Shown piece after piece: positions 5,309-43,521 of a stretch of DNA of 64,000 nt (positions within the stretch are counted from its first letter, which is position 1; each line of letters opens with the position of its first letter). Position numbers and translations under genes: made by a program. Under the pieces are notes generated by a model. It saw nothing but the letters and a program-made list of their open reading frames with translations, did no database searches and was not told the DNA's origin. The stretch comes from an uncultured Chloroflexia bacterium (GTDB taxonomy: Bacteria; Chloroflexota; Limnocylindria; QHBO01), in contig CAWGTN010000002.1 in NCBI GenBank assembly GCA_963825525.1, positions 416,001 to 480,000 of the forward strand. Direction: 5' to 3'.

Positions 5309-7519
5309 TCAGTCCCCCCCGGTCTCCGCCGCACCCACCTCGCGCTTCCACGCCCCCGTCGCATCGGCGAGCAGCTCCGCGACATCGCGGACCGCGACAT
5401 CGGTGCGGTCGAGGTCCGTGGTGCCATCTCGCAGCATGATCAGGCAGAAGGGACACGCGGTCGCGATCTCGTCCGGTGTCTTCTCGAGCGCCTGCTCCAC
5501 GCGCTTGTGGTTGATGCGCGTGCCCTCGCGCTCCTCCATCCACATCCTCGCGCCGCCGGCGCCGCAGCACATCCCCTTGCGGTGGTGAAGGTCCATCTCG
5601 ACCACGCTCTGGCCCGGCACGGAATCCACCACGCGACGGCCCTCGTCGTAGACCTCGTTGTAGCGTCCCAGGTAGCACGCGTCGTGATACGCGATCACGG
5701 CGTCATGGTGCTCCTCGGGCACCAGCCGGCCATCAGCGACCAGCCGATCGAGCAGCTGGGTGTGGTGGATGACCTGGATCCCGGTGAGGCCGAACTGCGG
5801 GTACTCGTTCTTGATGGTGTTGAAGCAGTGCGGGCAGGTGGCCACGATGGTCGAGATGCCGTGCTCGGCGTGCGCGGCAGACAGGGTCGCGACGTTCTCC
5901 TCGGCGAGCATCTGGTAGAGGTACTCGTTGCCGGCCCGCCGCGCCGGATCGCCCGTGCAGGTCTCCTGGGCGCCGAGCACCGCGAACGGTATCTCGGCCT
6001 GGTTCAGGAGCTGCGCCATGGCACGCACCACCTTCCGATTGCGATCGTCGAATGCGCCGGCGCACCCGACCCAGAACAGGATGCGCCCGCCGAGCACGTC
6101 GCCCGTGGGATCGGACTCGTGAATCGTCCTCCATGGCGTGGTGCCGTCCGTGCTGCGCCGGGGCGGATCGGCATCGGCCAACAGGGGAACGTCCAGGCCC
6201 TTTGCCCAGTCCATGCGCGATGATTTCGGCTGGCCCCAGGGGTTGCCGGCGTTCTCCATGTTGCGAAATGCCGCATTGAGCTCCTTGGGGAATCGGCTCT
6301 CCTCGAGCACCGCGTTTCGGCGAATCTCGACGATCGTGTCAACGTGCTCGATGAGCACCGGGCAGCCCTCGACACACCAGCCGCAGGTCGTGCACTGCCA
6401 GACCGCCTCCTCCGGGATCACGTTGTCCATGAGGGGCAGGGTGAGCGCCTCCTCCGCGCGGCCCCGGGCCAGCGACAGCGCATCCTCCGAGGCCGATGCA
6501 CCACCGTTGGCTCCCCCCTTCCACGCACGCTGGGCCGATGCGGCCGCTGCCAGCGCCGTCTCGGCCGATGCGATCTGATCGCGCAGTCCTTCCATGAGGT
6601 GCTTGGGCGAGAGCGTCTTGCCCGTCATCGAGGCCGGACAGAACTCCATGCAGCGTCCGCACTCCGTGCACGCCAGGCCGTCGGAGAGGTGACGCCAGGT
6701 CAGGTCCTGCAGGCCCTTGGCACCGAAGACGGGAAGCTCCTCGCCTTCCTCGGGCTCCGCCTCGAGGTCCATCTTGCGGAGCGCGCCACGCGGCTCGAGG
6801 TTGCGGAAATAGACGTTGGGCTCGCTGCTGATGATGTGGAGGTGCTTGCTGTACGGCAGGTAGGCCCCGAATCCAAGGACCAGGATGATGTGCGACCACG
6901 CCATGACCCCGAAGCCGATGGTGGCGGCTTCCCGGCCGATCGGCTCGAGTGCCAGGCTCAGCGGGCCGGCCAGGGGCGCCCAGGCACGAGCCGGGTCCTC
7001 TGGCTCCAGCACGAATCCGAACGCGTCCCCCAGCCACTCGGTGAGCACGATGCTGAAGATGAGGCCCAGGATGATGAAGGCGTCACGCGTGAGGGCCAGC
7101 CGCGCCGGACGAATCACGGTGCGACGAATGACGAAGTACGCGACCGAGGCCAGTACCAACCCGACGAAGACGTTGGCGAACAGGACGATCACGCTCCAGA
7201 AGAAGCCGCCCAGCGGCCATCCGACGACGGTCTCCACCAGCCCGTTGGTCAGGTAGTTGCCGGTCGTGGCGAGGAGCACGATGAACCCCCAAAACACGAA
7301 GGCGTGCGTCAGCCCTGGACCGGGGTCCTGGAGCAGCCGGCGCTGACCGAACACGAACACGCCGAGGGCCTTGATCCGCTGCGGGACGCGGTCAAAGCGA
7401 TCGAGCGGCCGCCCGGCGCGCACCACGGCCAGGTGCCAACGGGCACGGCGCCAGAACAGAATGCCGGCCGCCACGATCGGGATGATGATCAGCGGATACG
7501 CCGGAATGGACGCTTCCAT
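5309..7519 (-). CDS. FadF/EtfD-like membrane Fe-S oxidoreductase (heterodisulfide-reductase-like)
   Basis: N-terminal TM domain with His residues; [12 protein letters not shown] and [12 protein letters not shown] [4Fe-4S] motifs; two CCG domains (CTGD, CPHC, CCGAGG, ACPFC). Confidence 0.9.
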
Positions 7520-34354: not shown

Positions 34355-35452
34355 TCAGCCGATCACCAGCGCCTCACGCGGCGAGGTCGTCAGCAGCCGT
34401 GGGCCTGACTCCTCCAGCGCCACGATGTCCTCGATCCGGATCCCGGTGACGCCCGGGAGGTAGATCCCGGGCTCGACGCTGAACACCATCCCCGCCTCCA
34501 GCCTCGAGGGCGCGCTGCGCCGCAGGCTCGGCGCCTCGTGAGTCTCCAGCCCGATGCCATGACCCAGGCCGTGCCCGTAAGGCTCAACCCCCTCCTGCTC
34601 GATGCGCTCCCGTGACAGGCGATCGAGTTCCTGGCCGTCCGCGCCGACAGTGATTCCCTCGATCGCGATCTGCTGTGCTTCCCGAACCGCATCGTGGTAT
34701 CGACGGACGTCGTCCGGCACATCGCCGACGAACAGGGTGCGCGTCATGTCCGAGCGGTAGCCATCCACCGCACAACCGAAGTCGATGAGGAGCACGTTGC
34801 CACGCTCGATCACGGCGTCCGATGGCCTGCCATGCGGCATCGCGGCCCTGGCGCCGGCCAGAACGATGGGCTCGAAGGCCAGGCCCTCCGCCCCGCTCGT
34901 CCGGAAGAATCGCTCGAGCTCAAGGGCGACCTGCCGTTCGGTCATGCCCGGTCGGATCCAACCGACCAGGTGGGCGAGACACGCGTCGGTCAACTCGCAG
35001 GCACGCTCGATGTCCGCGATCTCCTGCGCGGTCTTCAGGAGGCGCAGCGGGATGAGCTCGTCGTCGATCGCATGCAGCTCGACGCCGGGTGCGGCCTCCG
35101 CCAGCAGCGACCAGTCCGCGTGGCTCATCACCCGCGACTCCATGCCGAGCGCCGCGACACGGTGTCGGAGGAGCACCTCCGGCAACTCGCCGTGGATCGC
35201 GCCGGCGGTGGCCACGAGCTCCCAGCCCGGAGCCTGGTCCGCCGCCTGCTCCACGTAGCGGGAATCGGCGAAGATCAGCATCTCATCGGACGTCACCAGG
35301 AGGGTGCCTGACCAGCCGGAGGTCGGGCCCTCGGCGTCGCCCAGCTGGAAGCCGCTGAAGTAGCGGCGATTCGCGTTCCGGCTGATGAGCACGGCATCCA
35401 GGGACCGAGCCGCGAGCACGGCCCGAAGGCGTTCGATGCGAGCGGCCGTCAC
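34355..35452 (-). CDS. Xaa-Pro aminopeptidase (M24 family)
   Basis: PHG, DFG...GYRSDMTRT, HGLGHGIGLE.HE, VEPGIY, GIRIED. Confidence 0.93.
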   Translation of the reverse strand: MTAARIERLRAVLAARSLDAVLISRNANRRYFSGFQLGDAEGPTSGWSGTLLVTSDEMLIFADSRYVEQAADQAPGWELVATAGAIHGELPEVLLRHRVAALGMESRVMSHADWSLLAEAAPGVELHAIDDELIPLRLLKTAQEIADIERACELTDACLAHLVGWIRPGMTERQVALELERFFRTSGAEGLAFEPIVLAGARAAMPHGRPSDAVIERGNVLLIDFGCAVDGYRSDMTRTLFVGDVPDDVRRYHDAVREAQQIAIEGITVGADGQELDRLSRERIEQEGVEPYGHGLGHGIGLETHEAPSLRRSAPSRLEAGMVFSVEPGIYLPGVTGIRIEDIVALEESGPRLLTTSPREALVIG

Positions 35453-36831
35453 AGGCCGGCACACTCCTGGTTGGCGCGCGCGATGTTGGCGTTGTGCTCG
35501 TCGAGGGTCGTCGAGAAATAGTGCGAACCATCCCGCACCCCGTTCGGGCAACCGGCCACGAAGAACAGATAGCCCTCGTCGAGCGGCGCACTGGCCACCG
35601 CGGCGATGGACCCGATGCGCGGCGCGGCGATCGGCATCGGCGGCAGGCCGGGCCGCGTGTAGGTCTGGAAGCCGAGCAAGGTTTCGTCCAGGGCGACATC
35701 GCCACCGCTCACCTGCAGCTGCGGCCACCAGTTCACGGTGCCCCACTCGTCCACCGGAAGGTTTCCGCCGCCCTCGCCCAGCAACGGATGCCCGACCGGC
35801 CGCAGCTCGCCCGTGGTCAGGCCGTATTGGAGCGTGGGATCGGCATTGAGGAGGCCCACGGTCTGTTGGTTGTCCGGCTGCAGGAAGCGGTTGGTATAGA
35901 CCGCCGCGATGCGCGGGCGCTCCTCGTCGATCACGGCCTCGCGCTCGACGATGCTGGCGATGATCACCGCCTCGTCGATCGACAGGCCCTTGGCGGCGAT
36001 CCCGTCGCGAATCTCCTGGGTCAGCGCCTTGCCGAACTCGTCGAGGAGGCGCCGCACCACGGCTCGCGGCGTGGAGCTCTCGCCGCTGATCTGGTATTCG
36101 AGCGTCTCGGGCAGGATGTATCCCTCGAGTGATCGACCTGCCGGCAGATCGGCCAGGAAGTCGAACTCGTTGAGGAGTTCGGCCGGCGGCGCCTGCAGCA
36201 GCGAGGCGAACTCCTCCATGTTCATGGTCATCTTGCTCTCGGCGAAGGCCGCCACCACCTCCTCGATACGGAGGCCCTCGCGCAGGGTGACGCTGGTCAC
36301 CTCGCCGAACGGCTGACCCTGGAGCGCGGCGACGATCTCCGATGGGCGCAGGGTGGGTGACAGGTCGAACACGCCTGCCGCAAGCGTTCCCTCTCTCCCG
36401 GAAGAGATGACGGCGTACTGGAAGGCGATCTGGTTGCGGACCAGGCCCTGTTCGAGGAGCAGCTGGCCGATCGAGGTGTCGGTGGCCCCCTGCTCGACAG
36501 TGACCGTCACGCGACGCTGTTCGGCGCTGGCTGGCTCATCGGCCAGGACGTCGGGCTGGTACCAGCGCACGAAGTCCTCGACGAGGCCGTGCTCGATCGC
36601 CCCGGGGTTGTCCTCGACCCAGGCCATGACCCGCGGTGCGAAGAACGTGGTGAAGCCGAAGAAGATGAGAAAGCCGAGCAGCGCGATGGATCCGGCGATC
36701 CAGACGACCAGGAGCAGAGGCTCGATGCGGCGTCGCCGGCGAACGGGGCCCTCGCGCTGTTCGCGCAGGCGCCGGATGCGTGCGTTGCGTCGCTCCTCGT
36801 ACTCCCCCATGGGCGCCGGGCGTCGGCTCAT
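35449..36831 (-). CDS. mltG: Endolytic transglycosylase MltG
   Basis: N-terminal TM helix; LEGY..PETY-like segment, ASIVERE (catalytic Glu), L.ADPT, TY..PGLPP.PI. Confidence 0.92.
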   Translation of the reverse strand: MSRRPAPMGEYEERRNARIRRLREQREGPVRRRRRIEPLLLVVWIAGSIALLGFLIFFGFTTFFAPRVMAWVEDNPGAIEHGLVEDFVRWYQPDVLADEPASAEQRRVTVTVEQGATDTSIGQLLLEQGLVRNQIAFQYAVISSGREGTLAAGVFDLSPTLRPSEIVAALQGQPFGEVTSVTLREGLRIEEVVAAFAESKMTMNMEEFASLLQAPPAELLNEFDFLADLPAGRSLEGYILPETLEYQISGESSTPRAVVRRLLDEFGKALTQEIRDGIAAKGLSIDEAVIIASIVEREAVIDEERPRIAAVYTNRFLQPDNQQTVGLLNADPTLQYGLTTGELRPVGHPLLGEGGGNLPVDEWGTVNWWPQLQVSGGDVALDETLLGFQTYTRPGLPPMPIAAPRIGSIAAVASAPLDEGYLFFVAGCPNGVRDGSHYFSTTLDEHNANIARANQECAGL

Positions 36832-37253
36832 TCGGTCTCCTCAGGCGGTTGGGCGTCCAGGTATTGTTGCAGGATCACACGGGCCGCTGCCGAGTCGAGC
36901 TGCCCGCTGCGACGCGACGGCCGCGCCCCGGCGTCCGCCAGGCGCTCCCCCGCCTCCCATGAGCTGAGTCGCTCGTCCTGGTAGGCAATTCTCATGCCGA
37001 GAGCGGCCAACCGGTCTCCGAACGAGCGAGCGGCAGCGGCCTGCGAACCCTCGCTGCCGTCCATGTTCAGCGGGAGCCCGATCACGACCATGCTGGCATG
37101 CTCGGATGCGGCGAGAGCGCGGAGTGCGGCGAGGTCGGCATCCAGGTTGCTTCGGATGAGCGCGGGTCGTGCAAACGCCATCCGGGTTTCCGTGTCCCCC
37201 GCCGCCACGCCGATGCGACGACCTCCGTGATCGAGGCCGATGACGGTTGTCAC
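36828..37253 (-). CDS. ruvX: YqgF/RuvX RNase H-fold nuclease
   Basis: GLDHGGRRIGVA, IGLPLNMDG, DERLSS, DSAAA..ILQ.YLD. Confidence 0.95.
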   Translation of the reverse strand: MTTVIGLDHGGRRIGVAAGDTETRMAFARPALIRSNLDADLAALRALAASEHASMVVIGLPLNMDGSEGSQAAAARSFGDRLAALGMRIAYQDERLSSWEAGERLADAGARPSRRSGQLDSAAARVILQQYLDAQPPEETE

Positions 37254-38896
37254 GGAGCCGTCGACGGCACTGGTTCGCCCTCGACCGTGACGATGACGCG
37301 CCAATCCAGGGCGGGCACGTCTCCCACCCACCCCGGCCACAGCTCCACGGTCGCGTCGCCGAGCGGCTCCAGCGCGGCCTCCGCCTGTTCGGCCGACAGC
37401 CCGCGAACGAGGTCCACGATGGCCTGCCGATCCACCGCCTCGACGATGGTCCCCACGACCTCAACCCGGACGACGAGCTCGGAGCCATCACGGTTGGCAT
37501 CCACGATCTGCACCTGGTGACTGCCCGGGACGAGCTCCGTTCCCTCGGGCAGGAGTGACCGGTCGCCGTTCACCCTGGACTCGGCGAGTGCATCGACTTC
37601 GCTCCGCTCGACGGTCATCCGGTCGTACTCGATTGATCCCTGGATCTCGGCGGTCTCCTCGTCGCGCGTCCCGACGAGCCCCTCCAGGCCGTCGACCAGG
37701 GGATCGGCAGCCCCCGTGCCCGATTCGACGACCTGGCCATCGGTGCCCCCGAACCGCTCGCTCAAGGCATCTTCGAGATCGGAGATGAGCTGTCCGCGCG
37801 CGGCGTCCACGTCGGCCTGGAGGATCTCGGTGCCGACGTCGTCGATCCCTCCCGATGTCGGTTCGGGGTTGATGACCAGCCGCTGCGTGTTGTTCGGGAA
37901 TCCGCGGAGGCGCGCCGCCACGTTCTGGCTCAGAACGGTGTCGATTGCCTCCGCCGCCACGTTGCCATCCGGCCCGGCAGCGGCGGCCCGCACGTCGACG
38001 GCCTCCTCGCCGGCACGGATGGTTCCCTCGGCGGTGAGCGCGCCGGCGGGGACCACGATCTCCGCAACCGTCTCGTATGCCTGCTCTCCGGCCGCCACCA
38101 GCGCGCCGGCCCCGACGGATACCGCCACGGTGTTGAAGTTCCGGAACACCACGGTCCCGGTGGCCGGGGCCTGGATGGGATACGTGCCGGACGCCGTGAC
38201 GGTGGCGGTGGCCTCGACGCTCCCCTGCAGGCGTCCCGGATCGGCGATGCGCAGCGCGTACGACGCCGGCCCGATCTGCCGGCTGGCTGGGACCAGGCGG
38301 ATCGATGCAGCGGGGGCCACCGCGAGGACGCCGACCGTACCGCCGACCAGGAGCAGCGCGATGAGTGCCACCGGAATGACGACCGCCCGACCTGCGCGTC
38401 GTTTCCGGGCCGCACCAGCGGCGGGCGGTGAGGGGACCCTCGCACGGGGCACCGTGACCTCGCGCGTCTCCTCGGCGTCGGCGAGGAGTGCGGGGCCGGG
38501 CATGCCGGCCTGCGGGGCGCTGACGACGGCGGCCGCCAGCCCGGTCGTCTCCTCGGACATGTCACCGCGAACCACCCGGATGGGGGCGCGTGCGGAGGGG
38601 GCCTCGGCGTCAGTCATCGGCTCGGCCGTCCGCGCATCGGCGATGGTCGCCCACGCGTCCAGACCGGCCTCGGCAGCCAGCGAACGAGTCAGCGGATCCC
38701 CCACCACGGACAACCCGCGCCCGGTGGCATCGGCGACGCGTGCCAGCAGGCGGAGAGCAACGACGCTCGATGTCGCGCGCGAGCGGCCGGGCGCCACGAG
38801 CACGATCCGCTCGGCGTCCAGCGCGCGGATACGACGCACGACGCTCGTCACCTCGTCATCCGACTCGAGGTACAGGAGTGCGACTGCGTCGGTCAC
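37250..38896 (-). CDS. Single-pass membrane protein with STAS-like N-terminus and baseplate J/gp47-like external domain
   Basis: LYLESDDEVTSVVRRIR head, Ala/Pro linker, TM helix (AVVIPVALIALLLVGG), ATGTVVFRN...VPAG...A...G.DGNV...INPEPTSGG. Confidence 0.72.
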   Translation of the reverse strand: MTDAVALLYLESDDEVTSVVRRIRALDAERIVLVAPGRSRATSSVVALRLLARVADATGRGLSVVGDPLTRSLAAEAGLDAWATIADARTAEPMTDAEAPSARAPIRVVRGDMSEETTGLAAAVVSAPQAGMPGPALLADAEETREVTVPRARVPSPPAAGAARKRRAGRAVVIPVALIALLLVGGTVGVLAVAPAASIRLVPASRQIGPASYALRIADPGRLQGSVEATATVTASGTYPIQAPATGTVVFRNFNTVAVSVGAGALVAAGEQAYETVAEIVVPAGALTAEGTIRAGEEAVDVRAAAAGPDGNVAAEAIDTVLSQNVAARLRGFPNNTQRLVINPEPTSGGIDDVGTEILQADVDAARGQLISDLEDALSERFGGTDGQVVESGTGAADPLVDGLEGLVGTRDEETAEIQGSIEYDRMTVERSEVDALAESRVNGDRSLLPEGTELVPGSHQVQIVDANRDGSELVVRVEVVGTIVEAVDRQAIVDLVRGLSAEQAEAALEPLGDATVELWPGWVGDVPALDWRVIVTVEGEPVPSTAP

Positions 38897-40179
38897 AGCG
38901 CCATCTCCCGTACCACGCCACGCATCGCGCGGTCGACCGAGGAGGCTCCGGCGTCGAGGATGAGTGCCTGGTGGGCCAGTGCCAGCGGGGTCACGTCCTG
39001 CCGGCTGCCGAGGTGCCCGGTGGCGTCACGCAGTCCGACGACCTCGTCCGGCGACATGGCGCGGACTTTTGGCTGCCGAGCGAACGGCAGGGCGCCCCAC
39101 CAGCCGTCCTCGTCCAGGACGCTCCTGACCTGGGCAAGGTCGGCGCCGCCACCGCACAGCAGGATGCGGCCGGGCAGCAGCTCGCCGGCGGCGAGGTCGC
39201 CGATCATGAGCTCGATCCCGTCACGCCAGATCCGGGCGTCCTCCAGGAGCGCATCGGAGACGTCGGGCCGCGCGGCATCGGCCGACGCGAGCTTGAGCGT
39301 CTCGGCCTCGGCGAACGAGATCGCGAGTCGTTCCGCCACGCCCTTGGTGAACGCTCGTCCCCCGAGGGCCAACATCTTGGTACCGGCGATGCCTCCACCC
39401 CGGACCAGCGCAACGTCGGTCGTCCCGCCGCCGATATCGATGAACACGGCTCCCGCATCGCCCAGCTCACCCGGGTCCAGGCAGGTCGCGACAGCATACG
39501 GCTCGGCGATGACTCCCAGCAGCTCGAGGTCGAGGGCGGTGGCAACCGATTGCAGCGCCCCCAGGTGGACCATTGGCGCAAAGGCGTTGAACAGGTGCAG
39601 CTCGACCTGCGCCCCGGTGAAGCCGATGGGGTTGCTCACCGGATAGCCATCGATCTCCATCTCGACGATCGCGGCGTGAACGAGGCGCACGTCAAGGCGC
39701 TCCATCCCGGACTCCCAGCGGATGCGCTCCTCGGCCTCACGCAGCGCCGAGGTCTGGGCACGCGCCACGATCCGTTGCAGCTCATCCTCGTCGAGAGGCC
39801 TGCGCGGCGCGTCACGGCGCATGACGAGCGTGCTGGTGGCCCCCTTGACGAGCTCGCCCGCGATGCCGATGACGGCCGCCGTCGGACGGCGCCCGGCCAT
39901 GGCGCGTGCCTCGTTCATGGCCAGACGACAATTCTCGACCACGGCGTCGATGTCGCTCACCGTGCCCGATTGCATGTGCGCCAGGCCCTGCCGCTGACGG
40001 CCGCTGCCCAGCACGACGCCGGAGAGGTGGCCACTCGGATCTCGATCCACTGACAGGACGAGCGCCTTCGCGAACTCGGTGCCGATGTCGAGGGCCGCGA
40101 TGGCCGGGCTCGCGCCACCGCGCGCCATGCCGCGGATTCGATCCGCGACGCGGCCCCAGACCCCCTGCACGACCGTCAC
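38893..40179 (-). CDS. FtsA-like actin-family ATPase (paralogue not linked to ftsZ)
   Basis: ALDIGTE (phosphate 1), G..SDID, IDGY.V.NPIGFTG (FtsA 1C), AEPYA, IDIGGGTTD (phosphate 2), LGG..FT, AETLK, LCGGGA. Confidence 0.85.
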   Translation of the reverse strand: MTVVQGVWGRVADRIRGMARGGASPAIAALDIGTEFAKALVLSVDRDPSGHLSGVVLGSGRQRQGLAHMQSGTVSDIDAVVENCRLAMNEARAMAGRRPTAAVIGIAGELVKGATSTLVMRRDAPRRPLDEDELQRIVARAQTSALREAEERIRWESGMERLDVRLVHAAIVEMEIDGYPVSNPIGFTGAQVELHLFNAFAPMVHLGALQSVATALDLELLGVIAEPYAVATCLDPGELGDAGAVFIDIGGGTTDVALVRGGGIAGTKMLALGGRAFTKGVAERLAISFAEAETLKLASADAARPDVSDALLEDARIWRDGIELMIGDLAAGELLPGRILLCGGGADLAQVRSVLDEDGWWGALPFARQPKVRAMSPDEVVGLRDATGHLGSRQDVTPLALAHQALILDAGASSVDRAMRGVVREMAL

Positions 40180-40189
40180 CGCCGGCGTG

Positions 40190-42814
40190 TCAGGCCGTCT
40201 CGATCCGACGGAGCGCCTCGAGCGACAGGCGCGCCGCCTCACGCAGGGCATCATCGAGCCGTGCCGTGTCACGCCCGCCGGCCTGGGCCAGCTCGGGCCG
40301 GCCGCCGCCACCACCGCCGATGAGCGGTGCTGCCTCCCGAATGATCGCGCCGGCATCGAATCCCTCGGCTGCCAGGTCCCGGCTGGCCGCAACGAGCAGC
40401 GAGGGCTTGCCGTCCGCGCCGCCGGCCGCCACCAGGACGAATCGCCCGGTCATGCCGCGAAGGTCGTCGGCGAGCGCGCGGAGCGCGTTCGCATCGGCGT
40501 CGGGGAAGGTCTCGACGATCACGCGAGCGTCACCGGCCTGCTGGGCGCCATGCAGGGCCGCCGCGGCATCCAGCCGCGACTCGGCCGCCCGGGGGGCCTT
40601 CGCGGCGCGCTCCGCCTCGCGCAACCGGGCCAGGAGCGCCTCGACGCGCTGTGGCACCTGGTCCTCCCGCTCCCCCAGCAGCTGGGCCGTGGCCCGCAGT
40701 GCCTCGAGCCGCGACCCGACCAGCTCGTCGGCAGCCTCGCCGGTCACTGCCTCGATCCGCCGCAGGCCGGCGCCGATGCTCGACTCGCCGGTGATCACGA
40801 ACTGGCCGATCTGTCCGGTGCTCGCCACGTGGGTCCCGCCACACAGCTCCTTGCTGTAGCCGTCGACTGACACCACCCGCACGGACTCGGGAATGTACTT
40901 CTCGCCGAAGAACATGTCGGCACCGAGCTCGCGTGCTGCGTCCATGGCCATCCACTCGGTCAGGACGACCGCATCTCGACGGATTTGCGCATTCACGATG
41001 CGTTCGACCTGGCGCAGGCTCTCGCGCGGCGTCGCTCCCGAGCCGGGAAAGTCGAAGCGCAAACCTTCGGGGCCGACCCACGAGCCGGCCTGCTTCGCCT
41101 GGCCGCCGATCACGTCGCGCAGCGCCCGATGCAGGAGGTGGGTCGCGGTGTGGTTGCGAGCGGCCCCCCAGCGGCGTGACACGTCGACCTCGGCGCGGAT
41201 GGGATCGCCGACGGCCACGTCGCCGGTCAGGACCCCGAGGTGCGCGATGGCGTCACCCGATCGCTGGGTGTCGTCCACGCGGAGACGTCCGTTGGGCCCG
41301 ATCAGCTCACCGCGGTCGCCGATCTGCCCACCCCCTTCGGCATAGAACGGCGTTCGATCCAGGATGACGGCGGTCGGATCCCCGGGCACGAGCGCCTCGA
41401 CTCGCAGGTCATCGGCGGCCGTCTCGTTCGGATGGCCGATGAACTCGGTCGGAATGGACGACATCTCCGGGTCCAGCCGGAGTCCGCCACGTTTCTCGCC
41501 CCGGGACCGGTCGCGCTGCTCGGCCATGGCCGCCTCGAAGCCCGCGCGGTCGACGCTCGCGCCGCGCTCGGCCGCGATCTCGACCGTCAGGTCGATGGGA
41601 AAGCCGAACGTATCGTGCAGCCGGAAGGCGTCGGCACCCGAAATCGTGGGGCCGGCTGCCACCAGCTCGTCGAGCCGGGCACTTCCCGCCTCGAGCGTCC
41701 GCGCGAATTTCTCCTCCTCGGCCCCGATGGCATCGAGGATGGCCTCCCGTCCCTCACGGACGTACGGGTACGCGTCGCCCATGAGATCGATGACCACCGA
41801 CGCCGTCTCACGGAGAAATGGCGTCGTGATCCCGAGCAGACGCCCGTGGCGCACCGCGCGGCGCATGATTCGGCGCAGCACGTACCCCGGCCCGTCGTTC
41901 GACGGCTTCACCCCTTCGCCGAGCAGGAACGTCATGGCTCGCGAGTGGTCGGCAACCACCTGGTAGCTGAATCGCTCGCTCTCGACGGTCTCGGGATCGT
42001 GGCCGATGAACTGCGCCAGTCGCTCGATGATCGGCACGAAAAGGTCGGTCCGATAGTTCGAGTCCACATCCTGCACGACGGACGTCAGCCGCTCGAGGCC
42101 CGTCCCGGTGTCCACGCTGTTCATGGGCAGGGGGGTCAGCGTGCCATCCGCCGCCCGATCGAACTGCATGAAGACGAGATTCCCGACCTCGAGCCAGCGC
42201 GGGCACGTCTCCGAATGGTCCGGGATGCACTCCGGACCCTCGGAGAACTCGACGCCGCGGTCGTAATGAAGCTCGCTGCACGGGCCGGAAGGACCCGTGT
42301 CGCCCATCCGCCAGAAGTTCTTCTCGTCACCCTCCGCGATGTTGCCCCACCGCACGACCCGCTCCGGCGGCAGCCCGATCTCGCCCGTCCAGATCCGGTA
42401 GGCATCCTCGTCGTCGCTGTAGACGGTGGCCGCCAATCGGTCGGGCGCGATGCCGAACTCCTTCGTCAGCAGCTCCCAGTGCCAGTGGATGGCCTCTCGC
42501 TTGAAGTAATCGCCGAAGCTCCAGTTGCCCAACATCTCGAACAGCGTCTGGTGGCGAGGCGTACGCCCAACCTCCTCGAAGTCGTTGTGCTTTCCGGCCA
42601 CGCGCAGGCAGAGCTGCGAGTCCACTGCCCGGACGTAGTCGCGCTTCTCCTCGCCGGTCAGCACGCGCTTGAACGGCGCCATGCCCGAGTTCACGAACAG
42701 CAGGGTGGGGTCGTCCACGGCGAGCAGCGGCGCCGATGGCACACGGGTGTGGCCACGCTCCTCGAAGAAGCGCTGGAAGCGCTCGCGGACATCGGCCGCG
42801 CTCATCGGCTGCAT
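40190..42814 (-). CDS. alaS: Alanine--tRNA ligase
   Basis: DPTLLFVNSGM, FEMLGNWSFGDYFK, GPCSE, DTG.GLER, HTATHLL, ELCGGTH, GGGGG. Confidence 0.98.
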   Translation of the reverse strand: MQPMSAADVRERFQRFFEERGHTRVPSAPLLAVDDPTLLFVNSGMAPFKRVLTGEEKRDYVRAVDSQLCLRVAGKHNDFEEVGRTPRHQTLFEMLGNWSFGDYFKREAIHWHWELLTKEFGIAPDRLAATVYSDDEDAYRIWTGEIGLPPERVVRWGNIAEGDEKNFWRMGDTGPSGPCSELHYDRGVEFSEGPECIPDHSETCPRWLEVGNLVFMQFDRAADGTLTPLPMNSVDTGTGLERLTSVVQDVDSNYRTDLFVPIIERLAQFIGHDPETVESERFSYQVVADHSRAMTFLLGEGVKPSNDGPGYVLRRIMRRAVRHGRLLGITTPFLRETASVVIDLMGDAYPYVREGREAILDAIGAEEEKFARTLEAGSARLDELVAAGPTISGADAFRLHDTFGFPIDLTVEIAAERGASVDRAGFEAAMAEQRDRSRGEKRGGLRLDPEMSSIPTEFIGHPNETAADDLRVEALVPGDPTAVILDRTPFYAEGGGQIGDRGELIGPNGRLRVDDTQRSGDAIAHLGVLTGDVAVGDPIRAEVDVSRRWGAARNHTATHLLHRALRDVIGGQAKQAGSWVGPEGLRFDFPGSGATPRESLRQVERIVNAQIRRDAVVLTEWMAMDAARELGADMFFGEKYIPESVRVVSVDGYSKELCGGTHVASTGQIGQFVITGESSIGAGLRRIEAVTGEAADELVGSRLEALRATAQLLGEREDQVPQRVEALLARLREAERAAKAPRAAESRLDAAAALHGAQQAGDARVIVETFPDADANALRALADDLRGMTGRFVLVAAGGADGKPSLLVAASRDLAAEGFDAGAIIREAAPLIGGGGGGRPELAQAGGRDTARLDDALREAARLSLEALRRIETA

Positions 42815-42895
42815 CGGTTCACCTTCATTCCACGACGAGAGCCGGCGACCCACCGGCTCTCGTGCGCGTGACGCTGGTCGGAGGTGGGTCGCTGG

Positions 42896-43153
42896 TCAGG
42901 AGGCCGCACCCTCGGATGCCGCGTCGGCATGCGTGTCGTACTCGTTGACCATCTCGGCGCGCGCCTGTTCCGCGGCGGCCTTGCCCTCGCTCACCGCATC
43001 GCCGATCTCGGCGCGCTTGCTCTCAACGAAGTCGTTGACATGCTCGCGCAGCTCGTCTCCGGTCTGTGGTGCCAGGATCAGCCCGAGCGCCGCACCGACG
43101 AGCCCGCCGATCACGACGCCGGCGAAGAAGCTACCGAATCCGGAATCCTTCAT
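42896..43153 (-). CDS. YtxH-like protein
   Basis: F..G.VIGGLVGAALGLILAP.TG.ELR. Confidence 0.88.
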   Translation of the reverse strand: MKDSGFGSFFAGVVIGGLVGAALGLILAPQTGDELREHVNDFVESKRAEIGDAVSEGKAAAEQARAEMVNEYDTHADAASEGAAS

Positions 43154-43521
43154 GTGTTCCTGTCGTCCTCGCGTGTTTCCCACGATTCTACCGATCCGAC
43201 CTCCGACCGTCGCGGGCCAGCGGTGATCTGCACGGTCTCGAGGCTGTGCTGGAGCGAATTCATGAGGTCACTCAGTCGGTCGAGCTTGACCGCCGCGTCC
43301 TCGCTCAGCACCTCGACATTGCTCGTGAGCTCGCGGGCGTGCGTCAGGATGGGGCGAAGCTCGGCGTCGGTGGTCTGGGCGAGGCGTCTCAGGTCCGCCG
43401 CCAGCGCACGCGACTCTCGCACGAGTGGGGTGGTCTGCCAGGCGAGATAGGCGATGGCTCCGCCCGCGGCCAGGATGCCGAGGCCGGCGCCGACGTTGAA
43501 GATGGCGAGCGCGAGATCCAT
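43150..43521 (-). CDS. DUF948/YtxG-like membrane-anchored coiled-coil protein
   Basis: N-terminal TM helix then heptad helix; 4-bp overlap with the YtxH-like gene, the usual pairing. Confidence 0.65.
   Translation of the reverse strand: MDLALAIFNVGAGLGILAAGGAIAYLAWQTTPLVRESRALAADLRRLAQTTDAELRPILTHARELTSNVEVLSEDAAVKLDRLSDLMNSLQHSLETVQITAGPRRSEVGSVESWETREDDRNT

Follow-up and report, generated by a model that had tools for sequence, protein, structure and literature searches.

In division, elongation and pilus assembly, an actin-like protein works with a bitopic membrane protein to organise the process; FtsA-FtsN, MreB-RodZ and PilM-PilN are known examples. RodZ has a helix-turn-helix for a head rather than an alpha/beta domain of the STAS type; PilN contacts PilM via a short N-terminal peptide; and PilN and GspL carry a ferredoxin-like domain instead of a baseplate-J ectodomain. 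A further widely conserved pair would add to the understanding of how monoderm Chloroflexota, and perhaps bacteria of the candidate phyla radiation (CPR), build their envelopes, a subject on which we know of almost no experimental work. Here we describe a pair from a soil Chloroflexota bacterium, encoded in a stretch of 64,000 nucleotides (the window; positions 416,001 to 480,000 of contig CAWGTN010000002.1, assembly GCA_963825525.1), and consisting of an FtsA-like ATPase and a 548-residue bitopic membrane protein, here called X, whose extracytoplasmic part is of the phage baseplate-J type. The pair is real, conserved and, as far as our searches reach, undescribed; it is a variant of the known actin-like/bitopic pairing with an unprecedented ectodomain and a function that we infer. 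We regard it as roughly an even call that X is a conserved protein of the envelope in Chloroflexota that bear a wall, and that where the ATPase is present the two form a transmembrane coupling module, with an outer scaffold that most likely acts in wall growth or remodelling.

The pair sits amid housekeeping genes, in a minus-strand run of eight genes in the order alaS, FtsA-like, X, ruvX, mltG, an Xaa-Pro peptidase-like gene (named by eye), efp and xseA. The first five, with the pair itself listed first, are:

38893..40179, minus strand: FtsA-like actin-fold ATPase, 428 amino acids; GTG start 10 nt past the alaS stop; PF14450 match at E 6.1e-14
37250..38896, minus strand: X, 548-amino-acid bitopic membrane protein, whole gene with stop included; defined by its open reading frame (ORF), its relatives and its AlphaFold2 model
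36828..37253, minus strand: ruvX, YqgF-family nuclease; PF03652 match at E 6.7e-35; the start is the GTG overlapping the X stop
35449..36831, minus strand: mltG, YceG-family endolytic transglycosylase; PF02618 match at E 5.9e-57; TIGR00247 at 114.6 bits (cut-off 103.4)
40190..42853, minus strand: alaS, alanyl-tRNA synthetase, 887-amino-acid ORF heading the conserved block; by tblastn it lies directly upstream of the pair in related loci

From the FtsA-like gene to mltG each gene overlaps the next by 4 bp, with a GTGA (38896-38893) common to the FtsA-like stop and the X start, a GTGA (37253-37250) common to the X stop and the ruvX start, and an ATGA (36831-36828) common to the ruvX stop and the mltG start. 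Taken at its longest, from 37340, the ruvX ORF would overlap X by 91 bp; because the RuvX Pfam match begins only at residue 32 of that ORF, the 4-bp overlap at the in-frame GTG at 37253 is the likely junction. An earlier reading of this DNA from its letters alone (the sequence-only reading) had described this layout and these overlaps, which stand once the ruvX start is corrected to 37253, and it was also right that neither ftsZ nor a dcw cluster adjoins the pair in the window.

The same reading took the ATPase for a paralogue of FtsA, and the rest of the genome bears this out. On TIGR01174, the FtsA equivalog model, the window protein scores 108.5 bits by hmmscan and 102.6 bits in a six-frame search, short of the cut-off of 175.85, and the genome's canonical ftsA, on another contig (C1), scores 418.4 bits and is followed by ftsZ after about 1.9 kb. 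Since this canonical ftsA adjoins ftsZ on a different contig, the window gene is a second copy. The remaining three weaker actin-fold matches in the genome are, judged by sequence, two MreB-like ORFs and DnaK. All five of five further genomes, from five families, likewise hold a canonical FtsA above the cut-off (389-449 bits), and their FtsA-like copies score 95-116 bits. In a quick maximum-likelihood tree of 41 rows (29 FtsA-like, 10 canonical FtsA and 2 MreB, with no PilM included), all 29 FtsA-like rows fall into one group (Shimodaira-Hasegawa-like approximate likelihood ratio test, SH-aLRT, 99) on long branches apart from canonical FtsA. The window ATPase is thus a true FtsA paralogue, neither the genome's sole FtsA nor nested within canonical FtsA.

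The AlphaFold2 model of the FtsA-like protein (predicted local distance difference test, pLDDT, 87.3; predicted template-modelling score, pTM, 0.85) finds FtsA 7q6i_B as its top Foldseek match (E 5.8e-29, target template-modelling score, TMt, 0.80, 419 columns). FtsA structures as a whole lie at TMt 0.80-0.84, and PilM comes next at 0.63-0.76. In alignment A2 (29 FtsA-like sequences from many families) there is little or no variation in the phosphate-1, phosphate-2 and adenosine motifs: D31, G33 and T34, then D248, G250-252, T253 and D255, and then G343 and G344 do not vary, and G345 is nearly invariant. The protein is also predicted to bind the membrane, through a C-terminal 12-residue amphipathic helix of cationic character (414-425 in the model). 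The mean hydrophobic moment of these last 12 residues is 0.66 vs 0.27 for all 12-residue segments of the same proteins, a value attained by 1.3% of the segments, and the net charge of the tail is +1 to +4; the canonical FtsA copies of the same genomes also end in amphipathic tails of their own. ATPase identity is 66-85% across Limnocylindria and 37-46% across other families (the homologue list of the ATPase itself filled up with relatives at 78% identity or more and so gave no distant ones), and such strong conservation argues for an important function. At the other end of the protein, the first ATP motif is preceded in every lineage by a basic, partly aromatic stretch (residues 1-20, 40120-40179), which the model shows as a low-confidence helix and which could be a second membrane-binding element.

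X was modelled with a mean pLDDT of 86.9 and divides into the following parts:

38612..38896, minus strand: X residues 1-95, cytoplasmic alpha/beta head, STAS-like at best; pLDDT 83-97
38378..38611, minus strand: X residues 96-173, a disordered linker rich in Ala and Pro, with a basic run at its end; pLDDT below 50 over residues 97-173, columns poorly conserved in alignment A1 (62 full-length X relatives)
38318..38377, minus strand: X residues 174-193, single transmembrane helix in the model, with the basic run ARKRRAGR just before it
37253..38317, minus strand: X residues 194-548, extracytoplasmic domain of the baseplate-J/gp47-type wedge fold, by Foldseek, BFVD and PHROG; beta-rich over residues 195-545 in the model
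37835..38176, minus strand: X residues 241-354, beta-barrel that superposes rigidly on baseplate J (aligner Z 13.4) and on which the Pfam Baseplate_J match of the relatives falls

The linker and the single helix had been expected by the sequence-only reading, as had a baseplate-J ectodomain, which stands for the barrel. By the positive-inside rule, X is predicted to lie with its N-terminus inside and its C-terminus outside the cell.

Searched with hmmscan, X itself matches nothing in Pfam or NCBIfam at E <= 1, and in a six-frame search it scores 18.7 bits on Baseplate_J (PF04865), short of the gathering cut-off of 21.1. Its link to baseplates is made by the fold and by the relatives that match PF04865, not by X's own Pfam score: 45 of the 62 relatives in A1 match Baseplate_J at E <= 0.01, the best at 2.5e-12. 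One search gave 503 relatives of X among its scored candidates (among the 120 listed, 10 have PF04865 and two bear the name baseplate J in their source), and 1514 cluster representatives are related to X at E <= 0.001.

Structure comparison leads to the same family. Ranks 1-6 and 8-10 of the Foldseek matches of X in the PDB are baseplate wedge chains of contractile systems (8kea_d, E 3.7e-8), spanning cyanophage A-1(L), phi812, diffocin, phiCD508 and Mu gp47. Of the nine alignments, seven run over 345-373 columns of targets with 346-386 residues (the shortest, with 9gb2_A, covers 121), at template-modelling (TM) scores of 0.14-0.24. The predicted viral structures of BFVD give 40 matches at E <= 0.001, again with low TM scores, and those with names are nearly all baseplate J or wedge proteins. 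With VIA-align, residues 241-354 superpose on 8kea_b at Z 13.4 (root-mean-square deviation 1.9 over 95 residues, 26% identity) and on Mu gp47 9ki1_H at Z 11.6, with 18 baseplate chains at Z >= 8.6. Sequence profiles are fainter: X weakly matches phrog_6, a baseplate wedge subunit (E 5.1e-4), and its own profile finds Mu gp47 at E 0.041 and phi812 at E 0.049 among PDB sequences, weak matches only. From the predicted structure we firmly take the barrel to be J-like, and the ectodomain flanking it is probably J-like too, with a different domain arrangement.

X thus shares its barrel, at Z 11.6-13.4, with the baseplate J, gp47 and gp6-type wedges (PF04865; Mu gp47 9ki1, cyanophage A-1(L) 8kea, diffocin 8v3w). 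Unlike them it is membrane-anchored, has a cytoplasmic head and is chromosomal, with no tail genes found. We think it very improbable that X is a remnant of a prophage or of a contractile injection system, or a component of anti-phage defence. The fold and the phrog_6 match would fit such an origin, but neither a sheath nor a gp25 match (PF04984, PF04965) nor a second Baseplate_J match was found in this genome, which is 91.84% complete, in keeping with the sequence-only reading's remark that no other phage genes are present, and PADLOC has no match for X. The transmembrane anchor and head also lie outside what the matched wedge chains (346-393 residues) have room for. Finally, X keeps its place inside a housekeeping block across many families, which points to vertical inheritance. 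If our reading of X as an envelope protein is true, it would clearly show a phage baseplate fold in structural use by the cell, away from injection machines.

The head of X had been likened to a STAS/SpoIIAA fold. STAS domains are indeed the best VIA-align matches of residues 1-97, with SLC26 STAS domains and anti-sigma antagonists at Z 8.3-7.3, but the tool calls this range borderline, and sugar-binding and other alpha/beta folds follow at Z about 7. The head has no Pfam sequence-family match to STAS, and the Z range may mean just a common alpha/beta arrangement; on the model we would call it STAS-like at best. In lineages that have the ATPase gene, Ser44 (38765-38767) is nearly invariant; it caps the second helix of the head (45-57) and lies within the predicted interface described below. 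We take its position to be that of the phosphorylated serine in SpoIIAA-type STAS domains. Any resemblance to SpoIIAA, RsbS and the SLC26 C-terminal domain would lie in the fold and in this capping serine; a partner kinase or phosphatase for the X head is not evident.

The ATPase is predicted to bind this head. That the two meet had been raised by the sequence-only reading, and complex modelling supports it: the ATPase with X residues 1-100 scores 0.67 vs 0.15 for the best of three controls, on a scale whose mark 58 of 80 solved complexes attained, as did 2 of 110 mismatched pairs; these counts are only rough because author-built alignments were used. Three runs share at least 98% of contacts, with a partner pLDDT of at least 81. 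We know of no solved FtsA-STAS complex, so a pass from the model's memory seems unlikely. In the model, the ATPase contributes residues 268-283 and 313-328, plus 66, 70-71, 109 and 155-158, including the invariant R275 and F277; the two helices lie between the phosphate-2 and adenosine motifs, in subdomain IIB by position. The head contributes residues 13, 15-18, 20-21, 40, 43-47, 49-50, 53-54, 69, 72-73 and 76, which hold most of its invariant or nearly invariant residues (E15, T17, S44, R49 and L50 among them).

Conservation of the head points the same way. We compared identity to the Limnocylindria consensus between 17 distant heads from loci with the ATPase gene and 15 from loci without it:

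Interface positions: 0.35 with the ATPase gene, 0.22 without
Other head positions: 0.35 with, 0.33 without
E15: 0.59 with, 0.13 without
R40: 0.71 with, 0.13 without
S44: 0.65 with, 0.13 without
L50: 0.88 with, 0.27 without

The core positions V34, L51 and A55 are conserved in both groups. That interface positions appear to follow the ATPase gene agrees in direction with the complex model.

The pair resembles FtsA-FtsN (Vibrio maritimus FtsA-FtsN(1-29), PDB 7q6i), with which it shares the FtsA-type fold, the conserved ATP motifs, the C-terminal amphipathic helix and, by prediction, an ATPase ligand that is the cytoplasmic N-terminus of a single-pass membrane protein. It differs in that the ATPase falls below the family cut-off, forms a separate long-branch group alongside canonical FtsA and is not beside ftsZ; in that the ligand is a folded 95-residue domain predicted to sit on ATPase helices 268-328, not a short peptide; and in that the outer domain of X is unrelated to FtsN. 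MreB-RodZ offers another membrane-bound actin homologue with a bitopic adaptor whose cytoplasmic head is folded, with a link to wall growth that is here proposed by inference, but the window ATPase belongs to the FtsA/PilM fold class rather than to that of MreB, and the genome has two MreB-like genes besides.

PilM-PilN of the type IV pilus and GspL of type II secretion share the logic of a cytoplasmic actin-fold protein on the N-terminus of a bitopic partner, and the ATPase model matches PilM well enough (5eou_B TMt 0.69, 2ych_A 0.76) to suggest that the pair is an assembly platform of this type, organising the export or anchoring of a surface structure and not wall synthesis. We consider this improbable. 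FtsA structures match better, the PilM model TIGR01175 gives 26.7 bits against a cut-off of 133 (the MreB model gives 23 bits), and pilus or secretion genes are absent among the inspected neighbours. The predicted contact moreover runs via the ATPase helices of residues 268-328, not via a short N-terminal peptide, and the ectodomain of X has the baseplate-J fold.

How far the two genes travel together bears on whether they form a module at all. Among the 80 best loci of a contig scan for relatives, nearly all Limnocylindria-like, the order alaS, FtsA-like, X, ruvX, mltG is kept in all 80 as far as the contig reaches, with all eight genes through xseA visible in 38. Five of the 80 are labelled with other phyla but look like Chloroflexota in their identities and gene order, and we conclude nothing from the labels. 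In a search of the phylum, 29 of the first 30 loci (our own included) have the FtsA-like gene immediately ahead of X in the same orientation, the exception being truncated by a contig end. A further 40 loci from distant families, hand-picked from match lists and hence non-random, nearly all keep the slot, 19 with an FtsA-like gene ahead of X and 21 without; alaS abuts X in most of the latter. X precedes ruvX-mltG in nearly all of these distant loci (ruvX was undetected in L131 and L148, and mltG beside X in L149; the contigs of L157 and L159 end at X or soon after).

Across 301 Chloroflexota genomes, of which G038, G145, G173, G227 and G272 are marked unpublished, X is the wider element of the two. 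The ATPase was found in 91 (single-protein search at E <= 1e-40, a lower bound that misses a divergent copy in L146), X in 208 (profile from A1, also a lower bound, from a stricter first look) and mltG (YceG) in 264. Reading the match lists against each other places X in 90 of the 91 ATPase-bearing genomes. The expectation that the pair is conserved together therefore holds from the side of the ATPase, but not from that of X, which has no detected ATPase paralogue beside it in at least 118 of the 301 genomes. X often stands alone in the slot between alaS and ruvX-mltG, and it is nearly confined to genomes with mltG: it occurs in 205 of 264 mltG carriers and in 3 of the 37 other genomes, where mltG gave no match; of these 3, one is a contig end and two are fragmented assemblies (one of them unpublished). 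At least one family even carries an X without a head. In L144 (genome G116, 6028-7440) such an X directly follows alaS, with 33 residues before the region that aligns from profile position 123, and the FtsA-like paralogue was detected in none of the 17 genomes of that family. Because X occurs without the ATPase and without a head, the ATPase-X pair is not the minimal unit, and the earlier view of X as mere partner of the ATPase has to be given up.

X could accordingly be an autonomous surface or wall protein that needs no cytoskeletal partner, with the FtsA-like protein a lineage-specific regulator or chaperone of X or of something else, and the adjacency to ruvX-mltG a matter of operon packing. 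We give this a real though minor chance. Its wider occurrence and the headless X of L144 speak for it, as do five of five genomes with X alone, in which the window ATPase finds only a single weak match (45-61 bits, 26-29% identity), the level that would be expected of canonical FtsA. Against it, the ATPase is hardly ever found without X and adjoins it in all inspected loci with sufficient contig; the ATPase is also far better conserved than X among close relatives (66-85% vs 35-57% identity), and the complex model passes its controls.

X itself varies between families in further ways. In one family of 5-7 Mb genomes (G075, G093, G102, G111, G273) the X profile matches up to four times per genome, and some of these matches are not near alaS and fall in open frames of some 900-1100 amino acids. 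The X of L161 has about 330 additional residues between head and membrane helix. In another family (L125, 5736-7522), plsY-like and family-2 glycosyltransferase-like genes, named by eye, lie between alaS and X, in the place that the FtsA-like gene takes in other lineages.

To return to the coupling module, we think that the pair probably connects the wall with the inside of the cell. X would ancestrally have been a bitopic envelope protein with a J-type ectodomain outside the cell, encoded just ahead of ruvX-mltG. In Limnocylindria and many other lineages it would have gained or kept a cytoplasmic STAS-like head, to which a dedicated FtsA-family ATPase, sitting on the membrane via its cationic amphipathic C-terminal helix, would bind. 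An oligomerising scaffold in the region of the wall could then be coupled to the cytoplasmic ATPase through the nucleotide or polymer state of the latter; that this state organises the scaffold or signals to it is suggested by analogy with FtsA-FtsN, PilM-PilN and MreB-RodZ, and the scaffold may assemble into oligomers, given that J-type wedge proteins occur in baseplates as dimers and rings. That the ATPase forms filaments independently of FtsZ, perhaps positioning MltG, was a conjecture of the sequence-only reading. Its work would most likely be in wall growth or remodelling together with MltG, as the operon and the restriction of X to mltG carriers suggest.

Several observations weigh against this proposal. 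One is the many genomes with X and no detected ATPase, together with the headless X of at least one family. Another is that 59 of the 264 mltG-bearing genomes have no detected X, so a wall does not depend on it. Genomes that lack mltG are of small size (1.1-2.4 Mb) and fall in few, related families, so the association of X with mltG does not consist of independent events. As alaS, ruvX and mltG form a housekeeping block whose members have no known functional tie, adjacency to mltG may be meaningless. On the structural side, the STAS match of the head is borderline, at Z about 8, with no STAS chain among the listed Foldseek matches; rigid superposition on J proteins is limited to the barrel, the TM score of the whole ectodomain being at most 0.24. 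The complex score is the model's own confidence, and the contrast in interface conservation is modest, between sequences that are related to one another.

A bolder form of the coupling module is that X and the ATPase add a third membrane system of the actin family to FtsA-FtsZ and MreB in wall-bearing Chloroflexota and, going by leads, in CPR bacteria, with the polymer state of the ATPase passed via head and transmembrane helix to an extracellular ring or lattice of wedge homologues. We hold this to be unlikely. The leads are near-neighbour clusters in a protein atlas, given there with no alignments: Chloroflexota and Saccharimonadota for X, and Chloroflexota, Saccharimonadota, Peregrinibacteriota and Bacillota for the ATPase. 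Were it true, the phage-tail wedge protein and a cellular envelope scaffold would share ancestry, and the cellular form would possibly be the older.

Full-text searches found no literature on this FtsA-like/X pair; the papers that came up on baseplate J in Chloroflexi appear to concern Asgard viruses and phage-tail-like elements. By word search, the main text of the Southlakia transposon-sequencing (Tn-seq) paper (PMC10633639) contains no FtsA, baseplate, MltG, PilM or cell division.

A scan of the locus for promoters and terminators returned no promoter-like sites and two terminator-like sites vs 2.2 expected, and is uninformative because of the 70% G+C. Among the 18 sequencing runs listed as containing part of this stretch, none is of RNA. 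Upstream of alaS, on the minus strand at 42896-43521, lie genes for two small membrane proteins, YtxH-like and DUF948-like by eye, followed further upstream by a methyltransferase-like ORF and mnmA.

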